Made by a program: the position numbers and the translations under genes. From Alphaproteobacteria bacterium (GTDB lineage: Bacteria; Pseudomonadota; Alphaproteobacteria; UBA828), in the NCBI GenBank assembly GCA_965220745.1, contig CBDCQT010000012.1, positions 288,001 through 352,000 of the forward strand: a stretch of DNA of 64,000 bases. Reading direction: 5' to 3'. Of this stretch, positions 8,299 through 63,309 are shown piece by piece (position 1 is the first letter of the stretch; each line of letters starts with the position of its first letter). The notes under the pieces are model-generated. The model was not told the DNA's origin. It did not search any database and worked only from the letters and a program-made list of their open reading frames with translations.

Positions 8299-8396
8299 CG
8301 GCGCGGTTTGCCGCGAGTGGAGCTGCCGGCAGATCGACACCCAGACCGCGTGTCCCTACAGTGTCGTGGACAGGGCGGGCTGCCGGGGGGAACGGC

Positions 8397-9752
8397 ATGC
8401 CGGGCAAGCGCAAGGCCATTTGGGGGTGGATGTTCTTCGACTGGGCGGCCCAGCCCTTCTACACGCTCGTCCTCACGTTCGTCTTCGGTCCCTATTTCGT
8501 GTCCGAAGTGGTTGCCGATCCAGCGCAGGGCCAGGCCTTGTGGGGTCTTGCGATCGCGGTGGGCTCGATCGTCGTCGCGCTGACGGCTCCGTTGCTGGGC
8601 GCCGTCGCTGACGCGAGAGGACCGCGCAAGCCGTGGATCGTCGGTTTTTCCGTCCTCTATGTCGTCGGCGCCGCCGGGCTTTGGGGAGCAGTGCCGGGAT
8701 CGGCCGATCTCACGGCGATCCTGGCCTTCCTCGTTCTCGCCCTGATCGGGGCCGAGTTCACGGGAGTGTTCACCAACGCTGCCTTGCCGTCGCTCGGCGG
8801 CAGGAACGAAATCGGCCGCATTTCCGGCTCCGGCTGGGCGCTGGGATACTGGGGAGGGTTGGCGAGCCTCGTGATCGTGCTCGGTCTGATGGCGCCGGTG
8901 CCGGGATCGGAGAGAACCGTGACCGGCCTCGTCCCGATCTTCGGCCTCGACCCCGCGCTAGGCGAGGGCGCTCGCGCCGCCGGCCCGCTGTCGGCCGTCT
9001 GGTACATCGTCTTCATCGTCCCGTTCTTTCTCTGGACCCCCGACGCGAAGCGCGAGGCCCCGGCCACGAACACCGTCATTCGGGGGCTGAAGGACCTGAA
9101 GGACACCCTGGCTTCCCTGCCCTCGCGGGGCAGCTTCCTCGCCTATCTCGCCTCCTCGATGTTCTACCGCGACGCGCTCGGCGGGCTCTTCATCTTCGGC
9201 GGCATCTACGCGGCGGGCGTTCTGGAATGGGGCATGTTCGAGCTCGGCGTGTTCGGGGTGGTCGGCCTCGTCGCCGGCGCGGCGGGAGCCTGGATCGGTG
9301 GCCGTGCCGACGTGCGGTTCGGACCGAAACCCGTGATCGTCGCCACCATCCTCGCCTTGATGATCTTCTCCTTCATCATCATCACCACCGGCCCGGACGA
9401 GGTTCTGTTCATCGGCGTCGGCACCGCCGAGGCGCCATCGAGCCTGCCGACCATCGTGTTCTACATCTGCGGTGCGGTCATCGGGGCGGCCGGAGGGCCG
9501 CTCCAGGCGGCGTCGCGAACCATGCTCGTGCGGCAGGCCGGAGAGGAGAGAATGACGGAGGCGTTCGGGCTCTACGCGCTGGCCGGCAAGGTGACCTCTT
9601 TCGTGGCCCCCCTTCTGGTCGCATTCGCCACCGACGCAAGCGGCAGCCAGCGCGTCGGCGTCACGCCGATACTGGCCCTCTTCCTCGTCGGCCTGGTCCT
9701 CATGGTCTGGGTGCACGCCGACGGCGCGGAAGGCCGCCGCCAGCAGGCTTGA
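8397..9752 (+). CDS. MFS transporter (UMF1/ATG22-like)
   Basis: WGWMFFDWAAQPF start, many hydrophobic helices, GRISGSGWALGYWGG, QAASRTML, EAFGLYALAGK. Confidence 0.85.
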   Translation: MPGKRKAIWGWMFFDWAAQPFYTLVLTFVFGPYFVSEVVADPAQGQALWGLAIAVGSIVVALTAPLLGAVADARGPRKPWIVGFSVLYVVGAAGLWGAVPGSADLTAILAFLVLALIGAEFTGVFTNAALPSLGGRNEIGRISGSGWALGYWGGLASLVIVLGLMAPVPGSERTVTGLVPIFGLDPALGEGARAAGPLSAVWYIVFIVPFFLWTPDAKREAPATNTVIRGLKDLKDTLASLPSRGSFLAYLASSMFYRDALGGLFIFGGIYAAGVLEWGMFELGVFGVVGLVAGAAGAWIGGRADVRFGPKPVIVATILALMIFSFIIITTGPDEVLFIGVGTAEAPSSLPTIVFYICGAVIGAAGGPLQAASRTMLVRQAGEERMTEAFGLYALAGKVTSFVAPLLVAFATDASGSQRVGVTPILALFLVGLVLMVWVHADGAEGRRQQA

Positions 9753-10344
9753 ATGAAGAGAATCCAATGGGCGATGACGGCAACGGTTTCGGACAGAGTT
9801 GAGCGCAAGGTGATGTCCGCAGGACCTCCTGCAGCTCGACGTCCACCTCGAGCACAGTCTTGGTCGCCGGCGGTGTCCCGCAGGTCGGGCACGCGGGCTT
9901 GCGGGCGGGGTAGACCGTGGCGCTGTTGCGAGCGCCGCGGGTGCGAGCTAAGTTATTTGCGGTCTCGTGCCGATTTTGAGATCCGCCGCGCCCGTCCCGG
10001 ACCCTGCATCCAGGCGGGCGCGTTCCTTTTCGAACCATAGGATCATGACTTGCCCGCGTGCTGGCGCTTCGCGTCGGGGAGATCTGCCAGCCACCTCTGG
10101 ATGTCGGAGAGACGCCACGCGACGGCGCCGTTTGACCCAGGCCCGATACGCTTTGGCAGCGGAAAGCGCCCCTCTCGCATTGCGGCGTAGAGTCGCGAGG
10201 TGCTCATGCAGGTTATCTCCTAGACCTCGGGCCGGCGTAGCAGCCTGTCCGACATCAGGTCGATTTCTGGTGTGCCATTTGTGGCCATGATCCTCCCCCA
10301 TCGAGTTGGTCCACCCTTAGGTTATGGAAAGAGGAGGACCGACG

Positions 10345-10623
10345 ATGGCAAGGAAGCGTTACAAGCCCGAGGAGATCGTGAGCCTGCTGCGGCGGGCTGA
10401 GGTTCTGAACGGCCAGGGCATGTCGATGGCGGACGCGATCCGCGAGCTTGGGATCAGCGAGGTTACCTTCTACCGCTGGCGCAAGGAGTATGCCGGGATG
10501 AGCGGCGATCAGCTCCGCCGTTTGAAGGAGCTCGAGAAGGAGAACGAGCGGCTGCGCCGTGCGGTCTCCGATCTGACGCTGGACAAGCAGATTCTCAAAG
10601 AGGCCGCAGGGGGAAACTTCTAA
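10345..10623 (+). CDS. IS3 transposase OrfA
   Basis: HTH GISEVTFYRWRKEY plus leucine zipper; slippery G GGA AAC at 10611-10617. Confidence 0.93.
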   Translation: MARKRYKPEEIVSLLRRAEVLNGQGMSMADAIRELGISEVTFYRWRKEYAGMSGDQLRRLKELEKENERLRRAVSDLTLDKQILKEAAGGNF

Positions 10624-11516
10624 GCCCCTCGCGCCGGCGCCAGTGCATCGATCATGTCTGTGACCGGCTCGGGGTCTCGGAACGCCGCGCTTGCCGGGTG
10701 CTGGGGCAGCACCGCTCGACCCAGCGCCGCATCCCGCGCGGCCGCGACGACGAGGACCGCCTGGTCGCGTACATGATCGAGCTGGCCCGCCAGTACGGCC
10801 GTTACGGCTATCGCCGCATCGCGGCCCTGCTTCGCGATGCCGGCTGGCAGGTCAACGACAAGCGGATCGAGCGCTTGTGGCGGCGCGAGGGGCTGAAGGT
10901 GCCCGGCAAGCAACCGAAGCGGGGCCGGCTTTGGCTCAATGACGGCTCCTGCATCCGGCTGCGCGCCGAGAGGGCGGATCACGTCTGGTCCTACGACTTC
11001 GTCCATCACCGGACGTATGACGGCAGGGCCTTCCGCATGCTCAACGTCCTGGACGAGTTCACCCGCGAGAGCCTGGTCATCCGGGTGCGCAGGAGGCTTT
11101 CCTCGATCGACGTCATCGATGTGCTGACCGACCTGTTCATCCTGCGCGGCATTCCGACCTGGATCCGTTCCGACAACGGTCCGGAGTTCGTCGCCGAGGC
11201 CGTCAGGCGGTGGATCGCTGCGGTCAGCGCCCGCACCGCCTTCATCGAGCCGGGCTCACCCTGGGAGAACGGCTACATCGAGAGCTTCAATGCGCGGCTG
11301 CGCGACGAGCTCCTGAACGGGGAGATCTTCTACACCCTGAAGGAAGCCCAGGTTCTCATCGAATCGTGGCGGTGCCATTACAACGCGATCCGCCCACACG
11401 GCAGCCTGGGATACCGGCCGCCCGCCCCGGAGACGATCATCATGCCAAGCTGGCCGCCCGGCTCCGCTACGCTCCGCCGGCCACCCAGCTTGGCCGAGGA
11501 ACCCGCGATGCACTAA
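10620..11516 (+). CDS. IS3 transposase OrfB (DDE), reached by -1 frameshift
   Basis: YGYRRI, WSYDF, RSDNGPEF, SPWENGYIESFN. Confidence 0.93.
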   Translation, partial: LSPSRRRQCIDHVCDRLGVSERRACRVLGQHRSTQRRIPRGRDDEDRLVAYMIELARQYGRYGYRRIAALLRDAGWQVNDKRIERLWRREGLKVPGKQPKRGRLWLNDGSCIRLRAERADHVWSYDFVHHRTYDGRAFRMLNVLDEFTRESLVIRVRRRLSSIDVIDVLTDLFILRGIPTWIRSDNGPEFVAEAVRRWIAAVSARTAFIEPGSPWENGYIESFNARLRDELLNGEIFYTLKEAQVLIESWRCHYNAIRPHGSLGYRPPAPETIIMPSWPPGSATLRRPPSLAEEPAMH

Positions 11517-11642
11517 CATTCGACCTGGACCAGTCGACGGGGGCAGGTCAGCCATGGGGCTACTCCTGTCATCGGAATTGCCCAGGAATAGGTAATAATT
11601 GCTGCCCACACGAGAGACAGAATTCGCGGAATTGTGTCCCTG

Positions 11643-12383
11643 TTAGGAGACCGCGTCTGCCTTCGCCTCCCTCTTCTTCGCCTTCTTCCTCACCCGGTCC
11701 CGTATTTTCTTGATGGTCTCCGGGTCCGCATCGATGAGGCCTTCCTTTCGACACGCCTCTGCAACTATCTCCAGCGCATCCTTCAGTTTCGAGTTTGTCA
11801 GATTGGTCAAGATATCGATTGCCAAAGTAATCTTCTGGTCGCGCCTCCACTTCATCGGTTTCGGTCCCCGTCGGCGCTCCAGACGATCAGTGAACAGTGC
11901 GGCACTCGCCCAATTTCGTAGACTGGGCGGAATCGGCTCCCCCAAACTGACAATCAGAGCCACGAGATGACGCAATAAACTGTCGGCTCGCGGGTCGGTC
12001 TTGGCCTGTTCCACCCACTTTCGGCATCGCAGACATGCACCAAACCGGTAGTAGACATCGAGCATGCCGAAAGCCTTGTAGCGCACAATGGCGTCTTGGT
12101 AGGTCAATCCGGCTAGCGTTCCGTCCTCGACATTCAAGATGTGCCTGGCCATCAACTCGCGCCGAGAGTCGATCTTCTCCGCTGCCTCTCTATCTCTCGA
12201 CGCAGGCTCCAAGAATGGACTAAAGCGCTTCTCTTCAGTGGCCGCTACATTCCAGCCCCGATCAAACTCTGGATCATCATCCCCTCCGTCATCAGGTTTT
12301 GGATTATCAACGACCAAGCTTTGGCACGCTTTGAAGTGGTCGATCCGATCTTTCTCACTCAGATATTTCTTCAGGTCCGCCAA
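11643..12383 (-). CDS. Hypothetical island protein between integrase and alpA (start uncertain)
   Basis: Lower-GC open frame; basic helical C-terminus RRGPKPMKWRRDQKITLAID...ALEIVAEAC; TTG start guessed. Confidence 0.55.
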   Translation of the reverse strand: MADLKKYLSEKDRIDHFKACQSLVVDNPKPDDGGDDDPEFDRGWNVAATEEKRFSPFLEPASRDREAAEKIDSRRELMARHILNVEDGTLAGLTYQDAIVRYKAFGMLDVYYRFGACLRCRKWVEQAKTDPRADSLLRHLVALIVSLGEPIPPSLRNWASAALFTDRLERRRGPKPMKWRRDQKITLAIDILTNLTNSKLKDALEIVAEACRKEGLIDADPETIKKIRDRVRKKAKKREAKADAVS

Positions 12384-12480
12384 GCTGTGTTCGATCAGGA
12401 AGGGGCCATCCTGATCGACGAGGGCGTGGAGGCTAGGAGGGACAGGGGGCGAGCGCCCTTCCAGGCAGGGGCAACGTAGC

Positions 12481-13674
12481 CTATCCAAGGTGGTGCACCA
12501 TCGGCACGACGCGTCCTTCCTCGCTCTCCAGGTAGGCCGCCCATTGCTCCATAAGCGCGCGGCGCTTCTCGAGCAGCGTAGACCGCGCGTAGGCCGCCTC
12601 GACGGCACTGCCCACCGCGTGGGCCAGGCAGAGTTCCATGACCGCGTGCGGCGCGTTCGTGCACTCGCCTGCCCAGTCCCGGAAGCTCGACCGGAAGCCG
12701 TGGACGGTGGTGCGATCGGCGAACTCGAGGTCCCGCAACAGCTTGGTCAGGGTCATGTCGCTCATCGGCTTGCCCGGCCGCAGAGGCGACGGGAACACGA
12801 GGTCGCTCGCCAAATGGTGGATGGACTTGGCCTCCGCCAGGACCGCCACGGCGCGAGGCGAGAGCGGCACACGGTGCTCGACCTTGGCCTTCATGCGCTC
12901 GGCCGGGACGGTCCAAGTGGCGGTGTCCGTATCCATCTCTGACCAGCCAGCGCCGCGCGCCTCGCCTGACCGCGCGGCTGTCAGGATCAGGAACTCGAGA
13001 CACCACTTTGACGCCAGGGAGGCTCTCGATCCCCTTACGGCCTCGATCACCTCATGCACCTCGCCGTAAGGCATCGCTCGAAAATGGTTCTTGACCCTCG
13101 GCATGGTCGGTAACGCGCCGTCGATCGTCTCGCCCGCGACGTTGTTCTCGACATATCCGTGAGCCATGGCCCACTTGAGGATCGTGCGGATGCGCTGCCT
13201 GACGCGCCGCGCGGTCTCCATGCGTACATGCCAAATTGGTGTAAGGATGCGCAGCACGTCCTCTCGGCCGATCTGGTCAACGGGCAAGTCGCCGATGACC
13301 GGGAAGGCGTGCCGCTCCAGTGACTGCCACCAGCCCACCGTGTGCTTGCCGTTTCGCCAGCGCGGCTTGTTCGCTTCGAACGTCCGTTCCGCGGCCTCGC
13401 GAAACGTGGGTGTAGCGACCTTGCGTCTCTCGGCGAGCGGGTCGCCGCCGGCCGCGATCAACCTGCGGTCGTGGGCTACAGCCTCGCGAGCCTGGGCAAG
13501 TCCGACATCTGGGAACCGCCCCAGACCGATATCTCGCCGCTTGCCTGCGACCACCACGCGCTGGATCCAAGACCGTGCGCCGGTGCGTGAGATCTTGAGG
13601 TAGAGTCCGGCTCCGTCGCCGTGCATGCTGGGCGTCTTCAGGCTCCGTATCCCCGCTGCTGTCAGTTTCGGCAT
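12481..13674 (-). CDS. P4-like tyrosine integrase with arm-DNA-binding domain
   Basis: HGDGAGLYL N-terminus; catalytic LTAARSGE, HGFRSSFRDW, LAH, AYAR; immediately downstream of tRNA-Ser 3' end. Confidence 0.95.
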   Translation of the reverse strand: MPKLTAAGIRSLKTPSMHGDGAGLYLKISRTGARSWIQRVVVAGKRRDIGLGRFPDVGLAQAREAVAHDRRLIAAGGDPLAERRKVATPTFREAAERTFEANKPRWRNGKHTVGWWQSLERHAFPVIGDLPVDQIGREDVLRILTPIWHVRMETARRVRQRIRTILKWAMAHGYVENNVAGETIDGALPTMPRVKNHFRAMPYGEVHEVIEAVRGSRASLASKWCLEFLILTAARSGEARGAGWSEMDTDTATWTVPAERMKAKVEHRVPLSPRAVAVLAEAKSIHHLASDLVFPSPLRPGKPMSDMTLTKLLRDLEFADRTTVHGFRSSFRDWAGECTNAPHAVMELCLAHAVGSAVEAAYARSTLLEKRRALMEQWAAYLESEEGRVVPMVHHLG

Positions 13675-54876: not shown

Positions 54877-55902
54877 TCAGGCGGGCGCCGGTGCGCGCAT
54901 GTATCGGCTCGTCTCGCCGGGCGGGGTCGCGAGCCGGATCACGCCGCTGTCGTGCAGCTCCCGCAGATAGCGAAAGCCCTTGGCGTACTCCGAGAGAATG
55001 TGCTCGCCCGAGCGGAACCCGCGATAGCGCACGGGCCGCTCGGCCGTGACGAAGGGCGCAAGCGGCTCGACCCAGGCGTCGAAGTTCGCGGCGAAAAAGA
55101 GCGGTAGCGAGTAGCGCTCCTCGTCGATTCCCATCACCCGGTGCGGGCCCGAGGTGAAGAGCCCGTTGGTCCAGGTTTCCAGCGTGTCTCCCACGTTGAC
55201 GACGAGGCTGCCCGGCAGGGGCCGCACGTCGATCCACTCGCCGTCCACGCTCATCACCTGCAGCCCCGGCTTGGTCTGGTGCAGGATGGTGAAGCACTCC
55301 GAATCGGTGTGCGAGCCGATCCCGAGACGAAGCCGTTCCGATCCGGTGCCCGGCTCCGGCGCCGGGTAGTGGAGCAGCCGCAGGTTCGACGTGGGCTTCG
55401 TGAACATCGGCGCGAACGCATCTTCCGGCAGGTCGAGGGCACGGGCGAAGGCAGGGAGAAGCCGGCGCCCGAAGGCCATGACCGCCTCGTAGTAGCCGCC
55501 GACGGTCTCGCGAAAGCTGGGCAGGTCGGGCCAGACGTTGGGGCCGAGGAAGCGATAGCCCGCGACGTAGTCCGGGTCGTCGTCGGGCAGGTCGGCGGCG
55601 AGGTCGAAGGATGCCTTCCGGCCCACGCCCGGCTCGTCGCCATAGTCCTCTTCGCCCGGCGGCACATAGCCCCGGTGGTTGCGCGACTTCGCGATGTGGT
55701 AGCGCCGCTTCTCCTCGTCCGGCAGCGCATGGAAGCGCGCGGCCTGCTCGTAGGTGGCAGCGATCAGCGACTCCGGCACGCCGTGGCCGGTGACGTGGAA
55801 AAACCCGGTTCCCCGGCAGGCCTCGCCGATCGCGCCGCAGAGCGCGCGTCGGGCGGCGCTCTCGCCCGCGTCGAGAGCGTTCGCGTCGATGACCGGAATC
55901 AC
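54877..55902 (-). CDS. 2-oxoglutarate/Fe(II) oxygenase (IPNS-like family)
   Basis: [13 protein letters not shown]...PHRV, RYS. Confidence 0.9.
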
Positions 55903-56957
55903 GCGCCGGCCAGGCGGAACACCTCAGCAAACGCCGGGTGGATGCCCGCTGCGCCAAACGCCTCAAGGTCGCTCGAGCACGAGTTCTGGCTGAGCACGGC
56001 GGTGATCCCGCTGGGCTCGTGATGGCCGGCCATGGTGACGTGCCCGCGCAGCTGGCCGAGGTGGCCCTCGATCACAAGCTCGCCGAATCGGGAGACCAGG
56101 ACCCCGTGGCCGCAATGGGTGATGTTCGTGCCTGGGAATGAGGCCGGTAGCAGCGGGCCGCGCAGCATGGCGAGGGCGTCGTTCTCCAACACCTGCCCGG
56201 TGAAGAGCGCGTGAATGCCCCGCGCGAGGTCGCGCGGTGTCGTGACCAGATCGCCCGCCGCCCCGATGCCGGAGAGCGGAAACCAGTCGGAGGAATCCTC
56301 CGGCGGTGCCTCGGGCTCGGTGGAATCGAAGACGTATTGACGGGCCAGGTGTTCGCGCGGGAAGGCCTCGTCGCCGCCGCTCCAGGTCTCGGCCATGCCC
56401 GCCGGCTCGAAGACCGCGCGCCCGAGCCATTGGGAGAGCACCTCGCCCCGCTCGCTGGCGACGATCTCGCCCGCCAGCACGTAGCCGGGATTGGAATAGA
56501 TGAAGGCCTCACCGGGCGTGATCTGCGTTCCGTTGGCGAGCGCGAAGTCGATGATTCTCTCGGGCGTCCAGTCGTCGGCCGCGCCCTTGGGCATGAACGC
56601 CTCGTACTCGGGCAGGCCGCTGCGGTGACTGAGCAGGTGACGCACGCGGATCTCGTCCGCGCGCGGCAGGTGCGGGAGCCACCCCTCGATGGTCTGGTCG
56701 AGGCCGATCCGCCCCTCGCTCACCAGCGCGAGCACGGCAACGGCGGTCCAGGTCTTCTTGGTGCTCGCGGTCTTGAACAGGTGGTCGGGGGTGAGCGGCG
56801 CTCCCGTCTCGCGATTGGCGCAGCCGGCGGCGAGAGTCAGCACCCCTTCGCCCGGCCGGATGAGGGCGAGCGAAGCGCCGACGATGCCCTGCACCACGTG
56901 GTCGCTCAGCACCCGGTCGAGCTGGGATACCAGAACGTCGGTCTCCGGCTTCAGCAT
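55899..56957 (-). CDS. Serine hydrolase, beta-lactamase fold
   Basis: SxxK (STKK), LLSHRSGL, YSN, GHLG; overlaps the oxygenase start. Confidence 0.88.
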   Translation of the reverse strand: MLKPETDVLVSQLDRVLSDHVVQGIVGASLALIRPGEGVLTLAAGCANRETGAPLTPDHLFKTASTKKTWTAVAVLALVSEGRIGLDQTIEGWLPHLPRADEIRVRHLLSHRSGLPEYEAFMPKGAADDWTPERIIDFALANGTQITPGEAFIYSNPGYVLAGEIVASERGEVLSQWLGRAVFEPAGMAETWSGGDEAFPREHLARQYVFDSTEPEAPPEDSSDWFPLSGIGAAGDLVTTPRDLARGIHALFTGQVLENDALAMLRGPLLPASFPGTNITHCGHGVLVSRFGELVIEGHLGQLRGHVTMAGHHEPSGITAVLSQNSCSSDLEAFGAAGIHPAFAEVFRLAGA

Positions 56958-57106
56958 CGTCGCCCCCGTTCCGCTGTGCCCGCGCTCACCATAGCACGGG
57001 CCCGCCGCGCCGGCGGAAGGCGGGACCGGGCGGCACGACGTAGGGTTCCGTAGCCCAGACCATGGCCGTGTTGAGCAACGGCGGGGTGTGCGCTTGCTCT
57101 TGCACT

Positions 57107-57164
57107 TCATGGCGCGATACTGCCCCGAGCGGCACGCGCCCTGCACCCCACCATGGTCCGGGGC
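57107..57164 (-). promoter_or_regulatory. Second copy of the DUF3486 upstream block (dyad plus ATG)
   Basis: About 46/59 identical by hand count to 62028-62086, last 23 nt 22/23; dyad CCCACCATGGTCCG centred 43.5 nt before ATG at 57110. Confidence 0.6.
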
Positions 57165-57195
57165 GTTAGCACGCTGCAGCGAAGGGGGAGCACGC

Positions 57196-59556
57196 ATGGC
57201 GCACGTCGGCGCGGCGCACACACGCCTTGAAGACGATCGCTTTCTGACCGGCCGGGGCCGGTTCGTGGACGACATCCGCCTGCCGGGGGAGGCGTATGCC
57301 GCCTTCGTCCGCAGTCCCCACGCCCGCGCCCGCATCGGAGCGATCGCCACGGAGCGCGCACGTGCCATGCCGGGCGTGCTGGCCGTGCTTACCGGCGAGG
57401 ACTGGCGCCGCGACGGCGGCGGCGAGACCGACGTGCTGTGGGACATCAACTCCCACGACGGCACGCCGATGAACATCGCCCGCCGGCCGATCTTCGCCTC
57501 CGGCGAGGCCCGTCACGTGGGCGACACGGTGGCCCTCGTCGTCGCGGACGACCCGCATACCGCCGCCGACGCTGCGGCCGCCGTCGAGGTCGCGTGGGAG
57601 CCACTCCCCTCGATCACCGATCTCGCCGCGTCGGTCGAGGCGGATGCGCCGCTGGTGCACGAGGAGTTCGGCAGCAACGTCGCCTACGACTGGCGGCTCG
57701 GCGATGCCGAGGCGACGGAAGCCGCGTTCGCCGCTGCCGCCCACTCCACCGCGCTCTCGCTGAACAACAACCGCCTCGCGCCGAGTGCCATGGAGCCGCG
57801 CGCGGCCATCGGCGCGTACGGTCGCGGCGATGGGCGCTACACCCTCTGGTCCACCACGCAGAACCCGCATCTGGTCCGCCAGTGGCTCTCGCGCGACACG
57901 CTGCGCGCGCCCGAGCACACGATCAGGGTGGTGGCGCCCGATGTGGGCGGCGGCTTCGGCCAGAAGACCTATCACTACCCGGAGGAGGCGAGCCTGCCCT
58001 GGGCCGCGCGAATAGTGGGCCGGCCGGTGCGCTGGACCGCGACCCGTACCGAGACGCTCGCAGTGGATATCCACGCCCGCGACCACGTGACCGAGGCGCG
58101 CATGGCCTTCGATGAAGACGGGCGCATCGCCGCCGTCGAGGCCAACATCATCGCCAATCTCGGCGCCTATCAGAGTCAATTCGCCGCCTGCATCCCGACG
58201 CTCTTCTGCGTCACCATGTTCTCCGGCCAGTATGCGATCCCCGCTCTGCACTGCCGGGTGCTCGGCGTCTACACCAACACCACGCCGATCGACGCCTATC
58301 GCGGCGCCGGCAATCCCGAGATCACCTACGTCATCGAGCGCTTGATCGAGAACGGCGCGCGGGAGATGGCCGCCGAATCGGTCGAGGCCCGCGCGCGCAA
58401 CCTCGTGCCTGCCGCCGCCATGCCCTATGCGAGCGCGACCGGCGTCACCTACGACGTGGGCGACTTCCCGGCGGTGCTCGACAAGGCCCGCGCGCTCGCC
58501 GATCTCGACGCGCTCAAGGCCGAGCAGGCGAGGCTCCGGGAGGACGGCGTGCTGATGGGGATTGGCATGGCGGCCTTCATCCGTTCCGGCGGCGCGGGGC
58601 CCAGCCGGCTTGCCGCGGCCCTCGGCAGCCGCATGGGGCTCTGGGATGTGGCCACCGTCCGCGTCCATCCCAGCGGCAAGATCACCGTGCTCTGCGGCAG
58701 CCACAACCACGGCCAGTCCCACGCCACGACCTACGCACAGATCGTCGCGGACCGCTTCGGCTGCGACATGGCCGACATCGACGTCGTCGAAGGCGATACG
58801 GACCGGATCCCTCACGGCCTCGGCACCTGGGCCTCGCGCTCGATCACGGTGGTGGGCTCGGCGCTCGCCGTCGCCTCCGATCGCATCATCGACAAGGGCC
58901 GCCGTCTCGCCGCCCACCTCATGGAATGCGCCGTGGAGGACATCGACTTCGGGGCCGGCGCCTATTCCGTGCGCGGCACCGACCGGCGGATGACCTTCGT
59001 CGAGATCGCCGACATGGCCTATCGCGGCGCCGACTACCCCGAGGGCTTCGAGCTCGGGCTGGAAGAGGCGGCGTTCTTCGACCCGGACGACTTCAACTAT
59101 CCCTACGGCACCCACGTCGCCACGGTCACCGTCGATCCCGAGACCGGCGCGGTGCGGCTCACCGGCTACTACTCGGTGGAGGACATGGGCCTCGTGATCA
59201 ACCCGCTGGTGGTGGACGGCCAGCGCCACGGCGCCGCCGCCCAGGGCATCGGCCAGGCGCTGCTGGAGGACGTGCGCTACGAGCCGGACTCGGGCCAGCT
59301 GCTCACCGGCTCCTTCATGGACTACACGATCCCCCGCGCCGACGACATGCCGGACTTCGCGCTCGACAGCCACGTGACGCTGACCGAGACCAACCCGCTC
59401 GGCGTCAAGGGCGTGGGCGAGCTCGGCACTGCCGGGCCGCCGGCCGCGATCGGCAACGCCATCCTCGACGCGCTCTGGCACCTCGGCGTGCGCCAGATGG
59501 AGATGCCGTTCACGGCCGAGCGGGTCTGGCGCGCGATGCGCGACGCCTCCGCGTAG
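57196..59556 (+). CDS. Xanthine dehydrogenase / CoxL-like molybdopterin-binding subunit
   Basis: EDDRFLTGRGRFVDD, PDVGGGFGQK, AYRGAGN, HGQSHATT, GVKGVGE. Confidence 0.92.
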   Translation: MAHVGAAHTRLEDDRFLTGRGRFVDDIRLPGEAYAAFVRSPHARARIGAIATERARAMPGVLAVLTGEDWRRDGGGETDVLWDINSHDGTPMNIARRPIFASGEARHVGDTVALVVADDPHTAADAAAAVEVAWEPLPSITDLAASVEADAPLVHEEFGSNVAYDWRLGDAEATEAAFAAAAHSTALSLNNNRLAPSAMEPRAAIGAYGRGDGRYTLWSTTQNPHLVRQWLSRDTLRAPEHTIRVVAPDVGGGFGQKTYHYPEEASLPWAARIVGRPVRWTATRTETLAVDIHARDHVTEARMAFDEDGRIAAVEANIIANLGAYQSQFAACIPTLFCVTMFSGQYAIPALHCRVLGVYTNTTPIDAYRGAGNPEITYVIERLIENGAREMAAESVEARARNLVPAAAMPYASATGVTYDVGDFPAVLDKARALADLDALKAEQARLREDGVLMGIGMAAFIRSGGAGPSRLAAALGSRMGLWDVATVRVHPSGKITVLCGSHNHGQSHATTYAQIVADRFGCDMADIDVVEGDTDRIPHGLGTWASRSITVVGSALAVASDRIIDKGRRLAAHLMECAVEDIDFGAGAYSVRGTDRRMTFVEIADMAYRGADYPEGFELGLEEAAFFDPDDFNYPYGTHVATVTVDPETGAVRLTGYYSVEDMGLVINPLVVDGQRHGAAAQGIGQALLEDVRYEPDSGQLLTGSFMDYTIPRADDMPDFALDSHVTLTETNPLGVKGVGELGTAGPPAAIGNAILDALWHLGVRQMEMPFTAERVWRAMRDASA

Positions 59557-59581
59557 CCCCGGCGCTGCCCGCCGCGCCCCG

Positions 59582-61102
59582 TTACCGCAGGAACAGGCGG
59601 TAGGCGGGATTGTCGGTCTCCTCCCGGTAGTCGTACCCCACCTGCGCGAGGAACGACTGGAAGTCCGCGCGCTCGGCTTGCGGCACCTGCAGGCCGATCA
59701 GGACCCGGCCGTAGTCCGAGCCGTGGTTGCGGTAGTGGAACATGCTGATGTTCCACGGCCGGCGGCCCATCTGCGTGAGAAAGTGCATGAGCGCGCCCGG
59801 CCGCTCGGGAAAGTCGAAGCGATAGAGCACCTCGTCCAGCTCGCCCGGCGCGTGGCCGCCCACCATGTGGCGCACGTGGAGCTTGGCCATCTCGTTGTCG
59901 GTCAGGTCCAGGACGGGATAGCCGTCGCGCTCCAGCGCATCGACGAGTGACTGCTTGTCGGCACCGGCATCGCTGATCTCCACGCCGACGAAGATGTGCG
60001 CCTCCGCCCCGTCGGCATAGCGGTAGTTGAACTCGGTGATCGAGCGGTTGCCGATCAGCTCGCAGAAACGCAGCAGGCTTCCGGGCCGCTCGGGGATGGT
60101 CACCGCGAGCAGGCTCTCCCGCTGCTCGCCGAGCTGCGCCCGCTGGGCGATGTGGCGGAGGCGGTCGAAGTTGACGTTGGCGCCGCTCACCACTGCCGCG
60201 AAGCGATGGCCGTCCGCGGCGCCTTCCCGCTCGACGTAGCGCTTGAGCCCCGCCACCGCGAGCGCGCCCGCCGGCTCCGCGATCGAGCGCGTATCCTCGA
60301 AGATGTCCTTGATCGCCGCGCAGATTTCGTCGGTGGAGACCAGCACGACCTCGTCCACGCGCTCGCGCGCGATACGGAAGGGCTCGGCCCCGATCTGCTT
60401 CACCGCGACGCCGTCGGCGAAGATGCCGACGCTCTCCAGCACCACCCGCTCGCCCGCCGCGAGCGCCGCGTGCAGGGTCGGCGTCTCCTGCGGCTCGACG
60501 CCCACGATGCGCGTCTCCGGCCACAGCGCCTTGATGTAGGCGGCGATGCCGGCGATGAGTCCGCCGCCGCCGACGCTGACGAAGATGGCATCGAAGGGCT
60601 CGCCCTGCTGGCGCACGATCTCCATCCCCACCGTGCCCTGGCCTGCGATGACGTGCTCGTCGTCGTAGGGCGGAATCAGGACCATGCCGCGCTCGGCGGC
60701 GAGGGCTTCCGCTCTCTCCTTCGCCTCGTCGTAGGAGGAGCCGGAGAGCAGCACCTCGGCGCCGAGCCGCTCGACCGCGTCCACCTTGATGCGGGGCGCG
60801 GTCTCCGGCATGACGATGAGCGCCTGGACGCGCAGCCTGCGCGCCGCCAACGCGACCCCCTGCGCATGATTGCCGGCGGACGACGCGATCACCCCCCGCG
60901 CCCGCTCCTCGGGCGCGAGCGAGGTGAGTTTGTTGTAGGCGCCTCGGAGCTTGAACGAGAAGACCGGCTGCAGGTCCTCCCGCTTGAGCCAGACCTCGCA
61001 GCCGAGCCGCGAGGAGAGCTTTGGGGCACGCTCCAGGGGCGTCTCGCGCGCCACGTCGTAGACGCGCGCCTTCAGGATTTTCGTCACGTAGTCTCGGGAC
61101 AT
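59582..61102 (-). CDS. ilvA: Threonine ammonia-lyase, biosynthetic, long form
   Basis: KREDLQPVFSFKLRGA, SAGNHAQG, two regulatory repeats (PERPGS, PERPGA), FHYRNHG. Confidence 0.96.
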   Translation of the reverse strand: MSRDYVTKILKARVYDVARETPLERAPKLSSRLGCEVWLKREDLQPVFSFKLRGAYNKLTSLAPEERARGVIASSAGNHAQGVALAARRLRVQALIVMPETAPRIKVDAVERLGAEVLLSGSSYDEAKERAEALAAERGMVLIPPYDDEHVIAGQGTVGMEIVRQQGEPFDAIFVSVGGGGLIAGIAAYIKALWPETRIVGVEPQETPTLHAALAAGERVVLESVGIFADGVAVKQIGAEPFRIARERVDEVVLVSTDEICAAIKDIFEDTRSIAEPAGALAVAGLKRYVEREGAADGHRFAAVVSGANVNFDRLRHIAQRAQLGEQRESLLAVTIPERPGSLLRFCELIGNRSITEFNYRYADGAEAHIFVGVEISDAGADKQSLVDALERDGYPVLDLTDNEMAKLHVRHMVGGHAPGELDEVLYRFDFPERPGALMHFLTQMGRRPWNISMFHYRNHGSDYGRVLIGLQVPQAERADFQSFLAQVGYDYREETDNPAYRLFLR

Positions 61103-61215
61103 GGGGCGGGCTCATTCGCATGGGTGCTGCCGCGGCAGCCGGTACTCCACCGGCGTCCGCGCCGCGACGCATTCACATGGGAACGCGGCGGAATCAAATC
61201 AATCCACAGTCTCCA

Positions 61216-62031
61216 TCATGCCCGGATCTGCCCGGCGCTGCCCGGACTTGATCCGGGTATCCGGGTTTCCCGGCATCTTTCTCCGCCGGGGCTTCGCTCT
61301 GACATGCCAGGAGACGGGAACGATTTATTCAGGCGGGACTCGCCGGGATCAGCTGGGATTGATGGGTATAGGCGGGCTTCGGCGGGGTTCCACGGGTCCA
61401 CCGGCACCGATGTGACGGTGCGGGGAGCAGGCGGCGGCGGGGGTGGCGGGGGCCTGCCCTCCACCTCCGCGCGGATGATGGCGACCGCCTCCGGCGAGAG
61501 CCCGCCCTGGCCCTTGGCCCGGCCGGCGCCCTGCGCCGCCTTCTTTGCCGCCTGCTCCCGGTCTGTGCGGAGCTTGTCGGTGCCCTCGATGCGCTTGAGG
61601 GTGAGGGCGAGGCGGGCGAGCTCCTCCGTCGACACGGGCTCTTCCCGCGCGCTGAGACGAGCCATGGTGGAGAGCACCATCGTCCGCAGGGTCTCGATCA
61701 GCACGAGCCCCGCCTGGCCCTCTGGGCGCTCGCCCAGCGCATCCACCCACGCCTTGATGGTGCGGTCGGTTTCCTGCTGCTGGCGGATCATGTCGCGCAT
61801 GTTCTTGGCGTAGCGGCCGACGGCCGAGCGCGAGCATGTCTCGCCTTCGGCCCGGATGCGGGCGGTGATCTGGTCGATGGTGTCGCCGTCCGCGATGGCC
61901 TGATCGACGGCCTCGCGCAGCTTGGCCGGCAGGCGCTTGATGGAGGAGCGGCTGAACGCCGCCGCCGGCGTGGTCTGTCGGGTTTCGTTCTGCATGGCGT
62001 GGCTGTTCTCGCGGGATGGTTCCTGGCTCAT
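61216..62031 (-). CDS. Solitary Mu gp27-like (DUF3486) protein with proline-rich tail
   Basis: RSSIKRLP...TIDQI...SRSAVGRY and GLSPEAVAIIR pattern typical of gp27/DUF3486; start may be 62031 or 61995. Confidence 0.75.
   Translation of the reverse strand: MSQEPSRENSHAMQNETRQTTPAAAFSRSSIKRLPAKLREAVDQAIADGDTIDQITARIRAEGETCSRSAVGRYAKNMRDMIRQQQETDRTIKAWVDALGERPEGQAGLVLIETLRTMVLSTMARLSAREEPVSTEELARLALTLKRIEGTDKLRTDREQAAKKAAQGAGRAKGQGGLSPEAVAIIRAEVEGRPPPPPPPPAPRTVTSVPVDPWNPAEARLYPSIPADPGESRLNKSFPSPGMSERSPGGERCRETRIPGSSPGSAGQIRA
61219..61400. repeat. Two opposed 10-bp-phased degenerate repeat arrays
   Basis: TGCCCGG at 61219/61229/61239 on +; GGG cores at 61335, 45, 55, 64, 74, 84, 94 (CCC on -). 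Confidence 0.7.
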
Positions 62032-62086
62032 CCCGCGATGCTCCCCCGCGCCGCCCCTCCCTGTGCACCGCACCATGGTCCGGGGC
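62028..62086 (-). promoter_or_regulatory. Putative activator-dependent promoter of the DUF3486 gene
   Basis: Dyad CGCACCATGGTCCG (62069-62082) centred 44.5 nt upstream of ATG; weak -10-like GAGCAT 6 nt before ATG; no -35. Confidence 0.55.
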
Positions 62087-62099
62087 ATGCTACCGGCAA

Positions 62100-62252
62100 C
62101 CGACGAAGCGTTTGCCCTGATGGGACCGGGCTGCGGAGCAGCCCGGACGGCGCGAATGCGCCGCGCGCGAAGCGCGAAGCGTCGCGCGTTCACGCGCGCG
62201 GAGCGCACGATCGAACGGAGTTCGCGCCCGGCGATTGAGGGAACTGAAAAAA
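62100..62252 (+). repeat. Structured intergenic repeat, copy R4
   Basis: CCGGGCTGC/GCAGCCCGG hairpin, further hairpins, then CGAACGGAGTTCGCGCCCGGCGATTGAGGGAACTGAAA. Confidence 0.75.
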
Positions 62253-62265
62253 GCGAGCGTATGGC

Positions 62266-63309
62266 CTAACCGTAGATCGGGCGCAGCTGGTCGGCCATCG
62301 TCGCGAGCGGTTCGGGCGCGACGATGACGCCGTCTTCGAGAATCTGCTGCCCCTCGATCCACATCGACTGCATCGAGATCACGCAGTCAGGGTGGTTCTC
62401 GCCGCCGCCCGGCACCCAGAACGGCAGCCCGAGCCCGATGGCGTTGTAGCCCGCCACGCGCTGGTCCTCGATGAAGCACTTGCCGGTGTAGCGCGCCGCC
62501 GGATGGAAGCCGCATGTGAAGTGGACGACGTAGCCGAACTCGCCGTTTCCGGCCCGCGTCAGGGCGCGGCGCATGACCTTGTTCTCCGGCCCGCCGCCGA
62601 TGACCTCCCTGACCTTGCCGTCGATCTTCAGCGTCATCGGCTCGGCAAGCTCGGTGTAGTACTCGTGGAACATGTTGCTGGTGACGACCGAGCCCACCAC
62701 CGACTCCAGCTCCGGCAGGATCATCACGGTGCCGGGCACGAAATAGCCGCCGGGCTCGGTCGCGCGGGCGAAGGCGAAGCCCTCCGGCTTGCCCAGCGTG
62801 AAGCCGACGTCGGTACCGTGCGCGTTGGTGATGCGGCACTCCTTGCCGGCGGATTGCGTGAGCAGGCCGCCGAACGCGTCACCGAGCTGAAACATCCCGT
62901 CGAGATCGGCGCCACCCATCAGGCGCACCATCTCGTCGGCGCCGACGTCGGCGCCCAAAAAATAGCGGGTGCGGTTCTTCTCCATCGCGTCGTCGAAGGC
63001 CTTGGAGCCGGCCAGATAGGGCATGCAGAGATCGATCCAGACGTCGCAGGCGCCGGTGGCCGCCTTGACGTGATCCGGCAGATACTCGTCCGCCAGCCCA
63101 CCCTGGAAGGGCACCGGCGGCGCCAGCGTGATCGAGGCGACCTTGGCGCCGAGCCGGTAGGCGGCGTCCTGGATCGCCTGGACGCCGACGACATCGGTCC
63201 CCGTGTCGGTCGTGATGAGGACGCTCTCGCCCGCCTCGATGCACATCATGTCCCGCGTGAGGACATCGGCGGCGCGCGCCAGCTTCGGTCCGATCCCTGC
63301 ATCGGGCAT
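62266..63309 (-). CDS. M29 leucyl aminopeptidase-like / NicX-like metalloprotein
   Basis: IEAGESVLITTD, ITNAHGTDV, C-terminal HPDCVISMQSMWIEGQQILEDG. Confidence 0.6.
   Translation of the reverse strand: MPDAGIGPKLARAADVLTRDMMCIEAGESVLITTDTGTDVVGVQAIQDAAYRLGAKVASITLAPPVPFQGGLADEYLPDHVKAATGACDVWIDLCMPYLAGSKAFDDAMEKNRTRYFLGADVGADEMVRLMGGADLDGMFQLGDAFGGLLTQSAGKECRITNAHGTDVGFTLGKPEGFAFARATEPGGYFVPGTVMILPELESVVGSVVTSNMFHEYYTELAEPMTLKIDGKVREVIGGGPENKVMRRALTRAGNGEFGYVVHFTCGFHPAARYTGKCFIEDQRVAGYNAIGLGLPFWVPGGGENHPDCVISMQSMWIEGQQILEDGVIVAPEPLATMADQLRPIYG

Follow-up and report, generated by a model that had tools for sequence, protein, structure and literature searches.

The stretch of DNA analysed here (the window, 64,000 nucleotides) contains an intact open reading frame (ORF) of the gp27/DUF3486 type, located between ilvA and a 347-aa gene. 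The sequence-only reading had described the latter as peptidase-like; the arrangement stood, whereas this label is unconfirmed because the 347-aa gene belongs to no Pfam family. Apart from the gp27 ORF itself, no phage families were found among the genes called at 55.9-63.3 kb of the window, in agreement with the earlier statement that no phage gene lies nearby. The features of the locus are as follows.

57141..57157, minus strand: second LE 17-mer of the window, with 2 mismatches and an ATG 43.5 nt from the centre of its dyad
59582-61102: ilvA, neighbour of the gp27 ORF, with PALP and Thr_dehydrat_C domains
61204..62269, no strand assigned: whole polymorphic insert between ilvA and the 347-aa gene, from comparison with relatives and a metagenome
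61204..61330, no strand assigned: 3' flank that differs from copy to copy and carries REP-like hairpins; the only translated part is the non-conserved ORF tail
61216..62031, minus strand: gp27/DUF3486-like ORF, intact, 271 aa, ATG at 62031, with a fixed and conserved distance from ATG to dyad
61334..61359, minus strand: RE, three phased [A/T/G]TCCC[A/G] units, 8-12 bp apart, from a motif scan
61384..61404, minus strand: P-V-D-P-W-x-P motif, residues 210-216, invariant and C-terminal, from homolog columns
61453..61509, minus strand: conserved helix and predicted TerL contact, residues 175-193, from homolog columns and a complex model
61456..61941, minus strand: PF11985 domain, residues 31-192 (Pfam)
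62032..62085, minus strand: LE, a promoter-like unit of 17-mer, dyad, GC-rich spacer and -10-like element, from comparison of copies
62038-62043, minus strand: -10-like GAGCAT within LE
62063-62079, minus strand: LE 17-mer of the window gp27 copy
62068-62083, in gene sense: dyad CCGGACCATGGTGCGG, symmetric at 14 of 16 positions
62090..62265, no strand assigned: REP-like dispersed short repeats upstream of the LE-gene unit
62266-63309: 347-aa gene without Pfam family, the other neighbour of the gp27 ORF

An HMM search upheld the proposed family. PF11985 (Phage_Mu_Gp27) matched residues 31-192 of the ORF (E=1.3e-26, 94.4 bits against a curated cut-off of 28), covering positions 1-171 of the 173 in the profile, and PHROG 426, 'terminase small subunit', matched at E=5.9e-32; the likeness to Mu gp27/DUF3486 is a clear match to both families. 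Among 40 homologs, residues G177, L178, S179, E181, A184, I186, V190, E191 and G192 of the helix at 175-193 are invariant, and the P-V-D-P-W-x-P motif sits behind a poly-proline linker. The orthologous copy in the relative G006 stops earlier, and the final ~35 codons of the ORF therefore probably represent read-through into the flanking repeats. A C-terminal extension common to four of the six close gp27 copies is lost from the window copy. Parts of the gp27 gene are matched at 90-100% likeness by contigs of two RNA libraries (X19 and X20); these contigs were rejected as evidence of transcription or of a start site for the window copy, the gene being multi-copy and DNA carry-over being possible.

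The gene is part of an insertion polymorphism. At the orthologous site, 155 bp (G008) or 39 bp (G005) stand in for the insert, and a DNA metagenome contig (X4) skips it with a joint from 61203 to 62270. The REP-like repeats of 62090..62265 recur at many sites without a gp27 gene, and on the other side of the unit REP-like hairpins are found at 61216-61300, beyond the phased repeats. An Rfam scan of 56800-62500 at E<=5 returned nothing, and in the whole window a tRNA only.

Upstream of the gene, the dyad that the sequence-only reading had seen about 44 nt before the ATG was recovered with 16 positions and its centre 44.5 nt upstream of the A. The lack of a -35 box and the poor ribosome-binding site noted there were likewise borne out: a promoter scan of 61100-62300 gave 0 sigma-70-type promoters, and by eye no Shine-Dalgarno-like run was seen before the gp27 ATG. 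The 5' boundary of LE is sharp, at ~62085, and metagenome contigs part ways at 62083-62085. The second LE of the window lies in identical orientation upstream of a beta-lactamase-family gene. Throughout the genome, the LE 17-mer occurs 48 times at <=2 mismatches; at <=1 mismatch there are 39 copies versus 0 for the reversed word. The distance from dyad centre to ATG is 43-43.5 nt in 37 of the 48 copies and 44-44.5 nt in another 6, so that the activator-type geometry proposed for the window promoter is kept in 43/48. The common plan is a 16-bp dyad followed by a CAnnAT element 7-12 nt before the ATG, with no -35. This fixed spacing and the CAnnAT element suggest that a leaderless transcript may start near the LE ATG.

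LE is not simply the promoter of a regulon, because ~30 copies have no phage gene behind them and the downstream gene is co-oriented in only 25/48. By gene context, 16 LE sites are convergent, 19 tandem and co-oriented, 7 tandem and anti-oriented, and 6 divergent; for scale, the genome has 2117 tandem, 466 convergent and 462 divergent gene pairs. The dyad was also considered as an RNA element and rejected as such: RNAalifold found no consensus structure in 39 ungapped LE copies, in which no variable column pairs reached 75% pairing, and the idea of an RNA switch was dropped because spacer hairpins drawn by eye shift register between copies. The Mor-family gene that the promoter geometry had led one to expect was not found: in this genome, which is 99.96% complete, none of 10 scored candidates matched PF08765 (Mor/C family), while the control genomes matched once. 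A MuA search (PF02914, DDE_2) gave no match in the genome either, but the controls were equally silent and the result is uninformative.

The phased repeats reported at the 3' end of the gene were confirmed as three units at 61334-61359. This RE marks the 3' end of the conserved part of the LE-gene unit and is a candidate protein-binding (pac-like) array, judging from its sequence. Genome-wide there are 28 such arrays versus 1 for the reversed word, and 22 of the 28 follow an LE on the matching strand at a distance of no more than 1300 nt, a linkage of LE and RE. The best reading is that the LE-gene-RE unit was copied to new intergenic sites, giving ~30 miniature LE...RE derivatives. The short units retain the first ~15-25 codons of gp27 together with the C-terminal/RE part, and a clear internal-deletion derivative of gp27 copy 7 is located at C10:695262-695509. 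Two short units, L084 and L085, were compared with five relatives each. L084 is matched in full in G011 and G005, its ends being altered or rearranged in the other three; L085 has a full match only in G006, differs just past RE in G008 and is altered or rearranged in the others. Neither unit had a clean empty site in the five relatives, hence no target duplication could be read. As they are found at orthologous sites without an empty site, these two short units are old and not recently mobile.

The gene had been described as solitary. Locally this is correct; genome-wide it is not, as the genome holds nine PF11985 genes as well as, on a contig other than that of the window, a TerL+portal pair and a head-tail operon. 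Within +-6 kb of all nine gp27 copies, no phage families were found among the called genes, which comprise housekeeping genes, IS transposases and toxin-antitoxin parts; this range also contains no TerL or portal and no integrase, replication or helper-interference genes. Elsewhere in the genome lie a Mu-type head-tail operon, a lone TerL+portal pair, which is the only one of the genome and is located on contig C10, and a lysis-like gene, and these late-gene loci are flanked by housekeeping genes. The late-gene families are of Mu type (Portal_Mu, Mu gp36, Phage_tail_S, DUF3486). The presence of the dyad upstream of Mu-type late genes, which the sequence-only reading had proposed as a check, was observed at all of these loci. 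LE lies 100 nt upstream of portal, via a 17-codon uORF whose stop overlaps the portal ATG, and 173 nt upstream of the protease of the head-tail operon; at both, the LE ATG starts a short uORF and not the gene. The lysis-like gene (DUF5675) starts at the LE ATG, and the LE ahead of TerL is degenerate, with 4 mismatches but unchanged spacing. A gene of the S24/CI-like type adjoins the lysis-like genes. The tape measure is short (269 aa), which is only suggestive regarding a gene transfer agent (GTA); the head-tail operon is covered as far as a contig edge, where its known extent ends. A REP-like repeat is inserted within the head protease gene. A PF03354 match was set aside as having no relation to the gp27/LE system: it belongs to an ordinary prophage-like region where contig C12 ends.

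To follow the system among relatives, we used a comparison set of 41 genomes, with 20 of the genus and 20 of other genera. The set of species with the 17-mer is identical to the set with gp27 relatives (>30% identity): 17 species, all of one genus. These 17 LE-bearing genomes are kin and do not count as independent cases. In the 17 of 20 genus genomes with gp27 matches, the 17-mer is present in 9-65 copies per genome and is nearly invariant across the species; it has 0 copies in the other 3 genus genomes (G012, G016 and G017) and in all 20 other-genus genomes, and the reversed word has 0 everywhere. Near-identical portal and TerL genes are likewise confined, among the 41 genomes, to the 17 LE/gp27 species. 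Portal is single-copy and 84-96% identical in 16/17, G013 having only a 93% fragment and copies of 51-52%. TerL is 75-97% identical in 15/17, with a best match of 68% in G013 and none found in G007 (67% complete), and the capsid is 92-100% identical and single-copy in 16/17 species. With IlvA at 90-97% for scale, capsid and portal track housekeeping divergence. The sequences thus point to phage-derived structural genes that are vertically inherited under purifying selection, as is expected of a GTA. Gene order is also preserved: LE lies upstream of portal in all five relatives with full motif coordinates (G002, G006, G010, G015 and G018), and the head-tail operon adjoins hisD in four of the five relatives tested. 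TerL/portal and capsid are far apart also in G004, G005, G009, G011 and G014, and the dispersal of the late loci is therefore old. The system can decay with LE persisting, since G018 keeps 30 LE copies but has no capsid match and a TGA inside TerL.

All six close gp27 copies keep the whole domain open, and dN/dS of the core is 0.17-0.51 across 15 paralog pairs. Between the window gene and its G006 ortholog, dN/dS is 0.33-0.41. The flanking genes give lower values (ilvA 0.09, the gene on the other side 0.08), and gp27 is thus the fastest-evolving of the three. The dN/dS analysis suggested at the outset therefore reveals purifying selection and not neutral drift.

An AlphaFold2 model of gp27 had a mean pLDDT of 67.5, with core blocks at 77-92. 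In it, residues 36-61 form two short helices, and longer ones span 68-99, 106-128 and 135-171. The short pair can be read as a helix-turn-helix (HTH), although neither family nor fold searches returned an HTH. With Foldseek, nothing reached E<=0.001, the G20C small terminase appearing at rank 30 with E=2.6, VIA-align returned generic helical hairpins only (Z<8) and no terminase match, and a PDB sequence search gave no meaningful match. The absence of fold matches says nothing either way on the identity of gp27 as a small terminase (TerS). A complex model was calculated for TerL (from M36) and gp27 residues 175-240, using our own alignment. It scored 0.83, versus 0.04 for the best of 3 controls; in calibration, the score mark was reached by 116/157 solved complexes and by 2/215 mismatched pairs. 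Runs agreed in at least 37% of contacts, with a partner pLDDT of at least 44. The model supports docking of residues 175-193 on the resident TerL, as a predicted contact and not as demonstrated binding, and a TerS-TerL model may pass through likeness to known pairs.

We consider it reasonably probable that the gp27 gene is one of nine paralogous small terminase genes of a vertically inherited, dispersed, Mu-derived late regulon under the LE activator-type promoter. A dimeric activator would bind the LE dyad and turn on all loci together, transcripts beginning at or near the LE ATG. The gp27 protein would contact DNA via its putative HTH, oligomerise via its long helices and recruit the single resident TerL via the conserved helix 175-193; its likeliest DNA site would be the phased ATCCCR repeats (RE) that close each unit on its 3' side. 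The scattered, LE-sharing set of late genes suggests a phage tamed by its host, perhaps for moving host DNA between cells. The 'GTA-like' option mentioned in the sequence-only reading fits the conservation of the late gene set. A further step, which we put forward tentatively and with considerable doubt, is that the system is a Mu-like GTA of independent origin in a genus of uncultured Alphaproteobacteria, whose TerS and array have been copied chromosome-wide as nine genes and ~30 gene-less units.

Several observations on the units would also suit a selfish, MITE-like family, in which a small duplicative element is bounded by LE and RE. Its full-length master would be the gp27 form (~0.8 kb), from which the ~30 short LE...RE units would have arisen by internal deletion. 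The gp27 protein would then serve the element's own spread or upkeep, perhaps by recruiting a nuclease such as TerL, and not a packaging that benefits the host. The unit boundaries are sharp and common to copies, the short units keep both the start of gp27 and its C-terminal/RE part, the deletion derivative of copy 7 is a case in point, and the window copy is polymorphic, being empty in G008 and G005 and skipped by the metagenome contig. Moreover, in fragmented assemblies gp27 copies are located at the ends of contigs, G011 and G015 have rearrangement breakpoints at LE, and LE placement is biased to gene 3' ends. However, there is no transposase or recombinase in or beside the unit, the two ends, LE with its dyad and spacer and RE with its phased direct repeats, do not form an inverted pair, and no target-site duplication is definable at the empty sites, which is a weak test as the flanks are repeat-rich. 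The two tested short units are old, being full at the orthologous site in two of five relatives (counting L085 in G008, which differs past RE), and LE also heads single-copy, vertically inherited structural loci, unlike a transposon end. We regard this explanation as unlikely; it is compatible with the small-terminase regulon and does not exclude it.

The original proposal, a minimal cassette awaiting an infecting phage, did not survive the finding of nine paralogs that are co-distributed with a resident, inherited TerL/portal/capsid set. In its general form, a Mu-like phage, infecting or resident, would supply the late activator that turns on a stand-alone cassette, and the cassette would redirect that phage's terminase to host DNA or poison it. 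The activator-type promoter in a genome where no activator gene was found would fit such a cassette, and many gp27 copies could titrate a terminase. The genus does contain related phage genes, since divergent Mu-type TerL/portal sets are present in G013 (portal 51-52%) and G002 (portal 69%). Of the three divergent TerL+portal loci in G013, one was inspected across 40 kb and proved to be an isolated pair surrounded by housekeeping genes; neither LE (at <=3 mismatches) nor a Mor gene was present there. In IMG/VR the exact 17-mer had one match, which lacks the downstream rest of the unit and is taken as chance. With the strict co-distribution with resident genes that bear the same LE unit, and the conserved helix modelled onto the resident TerL, we hold the cassette to be very improbable, and nothing favours a decoy or poison role of the gp27 gene. 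Least probable, and already disfavoured, is that the copies and scattered structural genes are inert debris, the decaying remnants of an old Mu-like prophage. The scatter of the loci, the REP-like repeat inside the head protease gene, the lost capsid and interrupted TerL of G018 and the variable gp27 tails are what decay might leave. Against this stand the six open domains with their low dN/dS, the capsid and portal identities at the level of IlvA, the preserved synteny and the near-invariant 17-mer in 17 species.

Among cultured phages, the closest relatives of the window gene belong to DUF3486; they have 30-38% identity and come from 39 phage records (Pseudomonas 24, Vibrio 12, Microcystis 1, Chromohalobacter 1 and Shewanella 1). 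In Chromohalobacter phage YPCBV-1, the only one for which the accessible literature yielded a description of DUF3486, the gene (180 aa) lies directly upstream of a large-terminase-sized gene and a DUF935 portal. In contrast to such Mu-like phages, none of the nine copies here adjoins TerL or portal, and gp27 is multi-copy and has gained a poly-proline linker, the PVDPWxP motif and a 3' phased array.

In phage Mu, the middle and late promoters that respond to Mor and C have a dyad centred near -43.5 and no -35. LE resembles them in its dyad 43.5-44.5 nt before the presumed start, its -10-like element without a -35 and its presence at several late loci. It differs in that the reference point is an ATG and not a mapped transcription start, in that no Mor/C-family gene was found and in the ~30 units without a phage gene. 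Small terminases of SaPI/PICI satellites redirect the packaging of a helper phage. As in these, a TerS-like gene is found here apart from the large terminase and beside a candidate recognition array; however, no integrase, replication or interference gene lies beside any copy, and the partner TerL is a conserved resident gene that does not come from a helper phage. MITEs and REP-like elements share with the units the dozens of short intergenic copies, conserved ends and internal deletion of a longer coding form, but here no terminal inverted repeats, target duplication or transposase could be demonstrated.

Only a handful of independently evolved gene transfer agents are known, and how GTAs choose the DNA they package is an open question. 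The GTA of Rhodobacter capsulatus (RcGTA) is a vertically inherited, conserved, multi-locus and co-regulated gene set of HK97 type. Its small terminase and GTA packaging are the subjects of PMC6854486 and PMC7947584, respectively. The present system is similar to RcGTA in that a phage-derived head-tail and packaging set is inherited vertically, is strongly conserved, occupies several loci and is apparently co-regulated. The families are Mu-type here and HK97-type in RcGTA, the small terminase is nine-fold with a repeat array at each copy, and particles carrying random host DNA are, for the present system, a prediction. A search for Defluviicoccus together with gene transfer agents found nothing, and the accessible parts of the literature held no Mu-like or transposable-phage GTA and no multi-copy small terminases. 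A multiplied small terminase, each copy tied to a phased array that also occurs gene-less, is unusual.

If the system is a Mu-like GTA, induced packaging would start at dozens of chromosomal sites, headful packaging and hence gene transfer would be spread over the whole genome, and the LE-RE units themselves could be over-transmitted. If particles are made, packaging starts should map to the RE arrays and all loci should fire from LE; such a system would illustrate how packaging initiation could be spread along a host chromosome by a domesticated phage. Even without particles, the strict co-occurrence of the 17-mer with the phage genes provides a clean case for a new activator-operator pair and for studying the spread of promoter-bearing mini-elements.

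The ORF at 61216–62031 of the window, previously taken from the sequence alone for a gp27/DUF3486-like gene of Mu type, that is, a candidate small terminase (TerS), was matched to Pfam PF11985 (Phage_Mu_Gp27/DUF3486) over residues 31–192 with 94.4 bits (cut-off 28) and to PHROG 426, 'terminase small subunit', with E=5.9e-32. The following features were located:

61216–62031, minus strand: gp27-like ORF, 271 aa, ATG at 62031
61334–61359: phased array (RE) at the 3' end of gp27, three [A/T/G]TCCC[A/G] units
59582–61102, minus strand: ilvA, downstream of the gp27 ORF on the same strand
62266–63309, minus strand: 347-aa gene, upstream of the gp27 ORF

The sequence-only reading had placed this gene apart from any other phage gene and had seen phased repeats at its 3' end. 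Both observations are confirmed at the locus: the three array units are present, followed by REP-like hairpins, and no phage family was found among the called genes between 55.9 and 63.3 kb. The label 'peptidase-like' for the 347-aa neighbour was not upheld, as no Pfam family was found for it at E<=0.01; despite this, the neighbour is strongly conserved (dN/dS 0.08 against the relative G006). The G006 ortholog of gp27 stops earlier, so that read-through probably accounts for the final ~35 codons of the window ORF.

The genome holding the window (G000, window at C12:288001–352000; 4.82 Mb, 13 contigs, 99.96% complete) yielded nine PF11985 matches in a profile search, so that the term 'solitary' applies to the surroundings of the gene and not to its number. 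Within ±6 kb of all nine copies the called genes are housekeeping genes, joined by IS transposases at two sites and toxin-antitoxin parts at two; no phage family was found in these intervals. Six close copies share 86–93% nucleotide identity with the window copy over ~0.75–0.87 kb, while the other three are divergent. In an alignment of the six, a common unit has its abrupt start ~55 bp before the ATG and its end in the phased array, between mutually unrelated flanks. A further ~100-bp 3' extension past the array is common to copies c2, c3, c5 and c6 (sub-regions L011, L012, L013 and L014); with a putative translation ...ESWTEIAPRVYRTSPTSILSLGPE, it is also present in most of 40 homologs and missing from the window copy.

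The window copy is an insertion polymorphism. The gap between ilvA and the 347-aa gene measures 1061 bp in the window, 155 bp in G008 and 39 bp in G005, an orthologous gp27 insert is present in G006, and a contig of the DNA metagenome run X4 joins window position 61203 to 62270. The PF11985 domain is open in all six close copies, and core dN/dS values range from 0.17 to 0.51 in their 15 pairs (dS 0.07–0.19). Against the G006 ortholog the window copy gave 0.33–0.41, compared with 0.09 for the flanking ilvA and 0.08 for the other neighbour. On this evidence the gp27 copies are maintained.

A dyad, CCGGACCATGGTGCGG (window 62068–62083, gene sense), shows symmetry at 14 of its 16 positions, and its centre falls 44.5 nt ahead of the first base of the gp27 ATG, in agreement with the sequence-only reading, which had also noted the missing -35 box; a simple scan of 61100–62300 found no sigma-70-type promoter. 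Overlapping the dyad is a 17-mer, ACCATGGTGCGGTGCAC, that contains 12 of the 16 dyad bases. At <=2 mismatches it occurs 48 times in G000 after removal of two palindrome echoes, and the reversed word used as a control does not occur. Aligned copies open with a sharp 5' edge (ccCCGG) and run through the 17-mer, a GC-rich spacer, CAnnAT and six GC-rich bases to an ATG; this constant order is designated here as LE. The distance from dyad centre to ATG is 43 nt in 37 of the 48 copies and 44 nt in another 6. In Mu, promoters activated by Mor or C carry a dyad centred near -43.5. Assuming that transcription begins at the first base of the ATG, the dyad centre would lie at -43.5 or -44.5 and CAnnAT at -12 to -7, and the proposed Mor/C-like geometry would hold on that condition. 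The dyad was also considered as an RNA element. Rfam gave no match, and 39 ungapped LE copies showed neither a consensus structure nor a covarying pair; this reading therefore found no support. A second 17-mer unit in the window (57141–57157, minus strand, 2 mismatches, 43-nt spacing to ATG) sits between a molybdopterin-oxidoreductase-family gene (57088–59556, plus strand) and a beta-lactamase-family gene (55899–57476, minus strand), its ATG sharing the reading frame of the latter ORF's long form.

Many LE copies belong to miniature units. G000 contains 28 phased arrays, against one for the reversed control word; 22 of the 28 lie <=1300 nt downstream of a same-strand LE. LE and array are 702–726 nt apart in four of the close gp27 copies and 575 nt apart in the divergent copy 9; for 17 arrays of short units the distance is 107–275 nt. 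The short units retain the LE, the first ~15–25 codons and the C-terminal/array end of gp27. One clear internal-deletion derivative of gp27 copy 7 was identified, and the 17-mer is nearly invariant even in units with no gene behind it. LE copies were found between tandem genes (19 sites co-oriented with the neighbours, 7 anti-oriented), convergent genes (16 sites) and divergent genes (6 sites); compared with all gene pairs of G000 in a rough gene call (2117 tandem, 466 convergent, 462 divergent), the units thus favour gene 3' ends. Two short units were tested, and each was present in full at the orthologous site in 2 of 5 relatives, with breakpoints at the LE in G011 and G015. LE, gene and RE have evidently been copied together, both at full length and in miniature. 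A transposase, inverted ends and a target duplication were looked for, and none was found for the unit.

The same LE also heads Mu-type late genes, a positive outcome for the check that the sequence-only reading had proposed for the dyad. In G000 all such loci are on contig C10:

C10 1–9787, minus strand: head-tail operon, running off the contig start; genes for head maturation protease, scaffold/cement protein, major head protein, Mu gp36 adaptor, Phage_tail_S, tail terminator, major tail protein, chaperone and a 269-aa tape measure
C10 97381–97890: lysis-like DUF5675 gene, starting exactly at the LE ATG
C10 115808–118663: TerL + portal pair, Terminase_6C large terminase (TerL) and Mu-type portal PF06074

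The head-tail operon, whose further tail proteins run off the contig start, has an LE 173 nt upstream of the protease, with hisD beyond it. In the linker of this protease a ~100-bp REP-like repeat is carried in frame (L074, G000:C10, 9150–9262); repeats of this kind also lie upstream of the window gp27 copy, and in relatives similar sequence adjoins gp27 copies. The TerL + portal pair stands alone among housekeeping genes. The portal is preceded, at a distance of 100 nt, by an LE with an ATG that opens a 17-codon uORF; the TGA of this uORF and the ATG of the portal overlap (TGATG; L032, G000:C10, 17328–17430), which suggests translational coupling. For TerL, a degenerate LE (4 mismatches, 43-nt spacing kept) precedes the internal Met M36 of the frame. 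Most relatives' TerL alignments begin at query residues 7–47, and those of G006 and G011 at residues 1–2; a start near M36 would be compatible. The Mor-family gene that the sequence-only reading had also proposed to look for was not recovered, a search for PF08765 in G000 finding none. Adjoining the DUF5675 locus, two genes upstream, is a 317-aa S24-peptidase/CI-like repressor gene (L075, G000:C10:90001–100000, 8483–9433), a candidate regulator of the system.

Across 40 homologs of gp27, invariant residues are scattered over the PF11985 domain, including two short N-terminal helices, and occur in the helix G-L-S-x-E-x-x-A-x-I-x-x-x-V-E-G (residues 177–192) and in the C-terminal motif P-V-D-P-W-x-P. 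The AlphaFold2 model (mean pLDDT 67.5, core blocks 77–92) has two short helices (36–61) and three long ones; we read helices 36–61 as a putative HTH, although neither family nor fold searches matched one. When the resident TerL (from M36) was modelled in complex with gp27 residues 175–240, using a custom alignment, the score was 0.83, against 0.04 for the best of three controls; contact agreement between runs is at least 37%, and partner pLDDT is at least 44. In the calibration of the tool, 116 of 157 solved complexes attained its mark, as did 2 of 215 mismatched pairs. The modelled interface joins gp27 residues 175–193 to TerL residues 12–112 and supports a predicted gp27–TerL binding, a kind of pass that TerS–TerL likeness could help. 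The closest cultured-phage relatives of gp27 are DUF3486 genes (30–38% identity); in phage YPCBV-1 such a gene directly precedes a terminase-sized gene and a DUF935 portal.

To place the set in its lineage, 41 genomes were searched (G000, 20 of the same genus, 20 of other genera). Of the 20 genus genomes, 17 contain relatives of gp27 (1–17 matches each), and the 20 genomes of other genera gave one weak match (28% identity). The 17-mer (<=1 mismatch) has 9–65 copies in exactly these 17 genomes and none in the gp27-less G012, G016 and G017 or in any of the 20 outsiders, counts that are not independent as the genus genomes are kin. The portal is single-copy at 84–96% identity in 16 of the 17, G013 having only a 93% fragment (residues 319–408) and 51–52% copies; in G016 the match is limited to a partial one of 45%. 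TerL reaches 75–97% in 15 of the 17 (best 68% in G013; not found in G007, 67% complete), and the major head protein 92–100% in 16 (not found in G018). For scale, IlvA shows 90–97% identity in the same species, which rank similarly. The head-tail operon adjoins hisD in 4 of 5 relatives tested, and an LE lies upstream of the portal in all five relatives with fully listed motif coordinates. TerL/portal and capsid genes are far apart in G004, G005, G009, G011 and G014 too, and hence the scattering of the late genes is old. An ordinary prophage or debris does not fit this conservation and co-distribution; the genomic comparison shows the pattern of a phage-derived system that is dispersed, inherited vertically and under selection.

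Other phage-like loci were encountered. G013 has three copies of a divergent TerL + portal pair (TerL 65–68%, portal 51–52% identity); the one examined (L106/L107, G013:C9:165001–205000) stands alone among housekeeping genes with no LE nearby, 20 kb from an IS21-type element (IstB and a transposase whose C-terminal domain is of the Mu-transposase type). At a contig end of G000 lies a separate prophage-like region of ordinary type (L035, G000:C12:918001–932740, 5573–13510), which carries an integrase, a large terminase (PHROG 9), an HNH endonuclease and a fragment of head protease/capsid; it has no relation to the Mu-type set.

We lean, with moderate confidence, towards reading the window gene as one small-terminase paralog within a dispersed Mu-type late regulon that has been domesticated and is driven by a shared activator-type promoter unit, and in which the gene-plus-array unit has been multiplied. 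Our searches found no published description of such a multiplied-small-terminase, dispersed Mu-type system in the part of the literature that they reached. The window gp27 gene is a real finding, of more interest than a stray gene. The set may constitute a Mu-derived GTA, with particles carrying host DNA, for which the arrays may be candidate packaging start sites.
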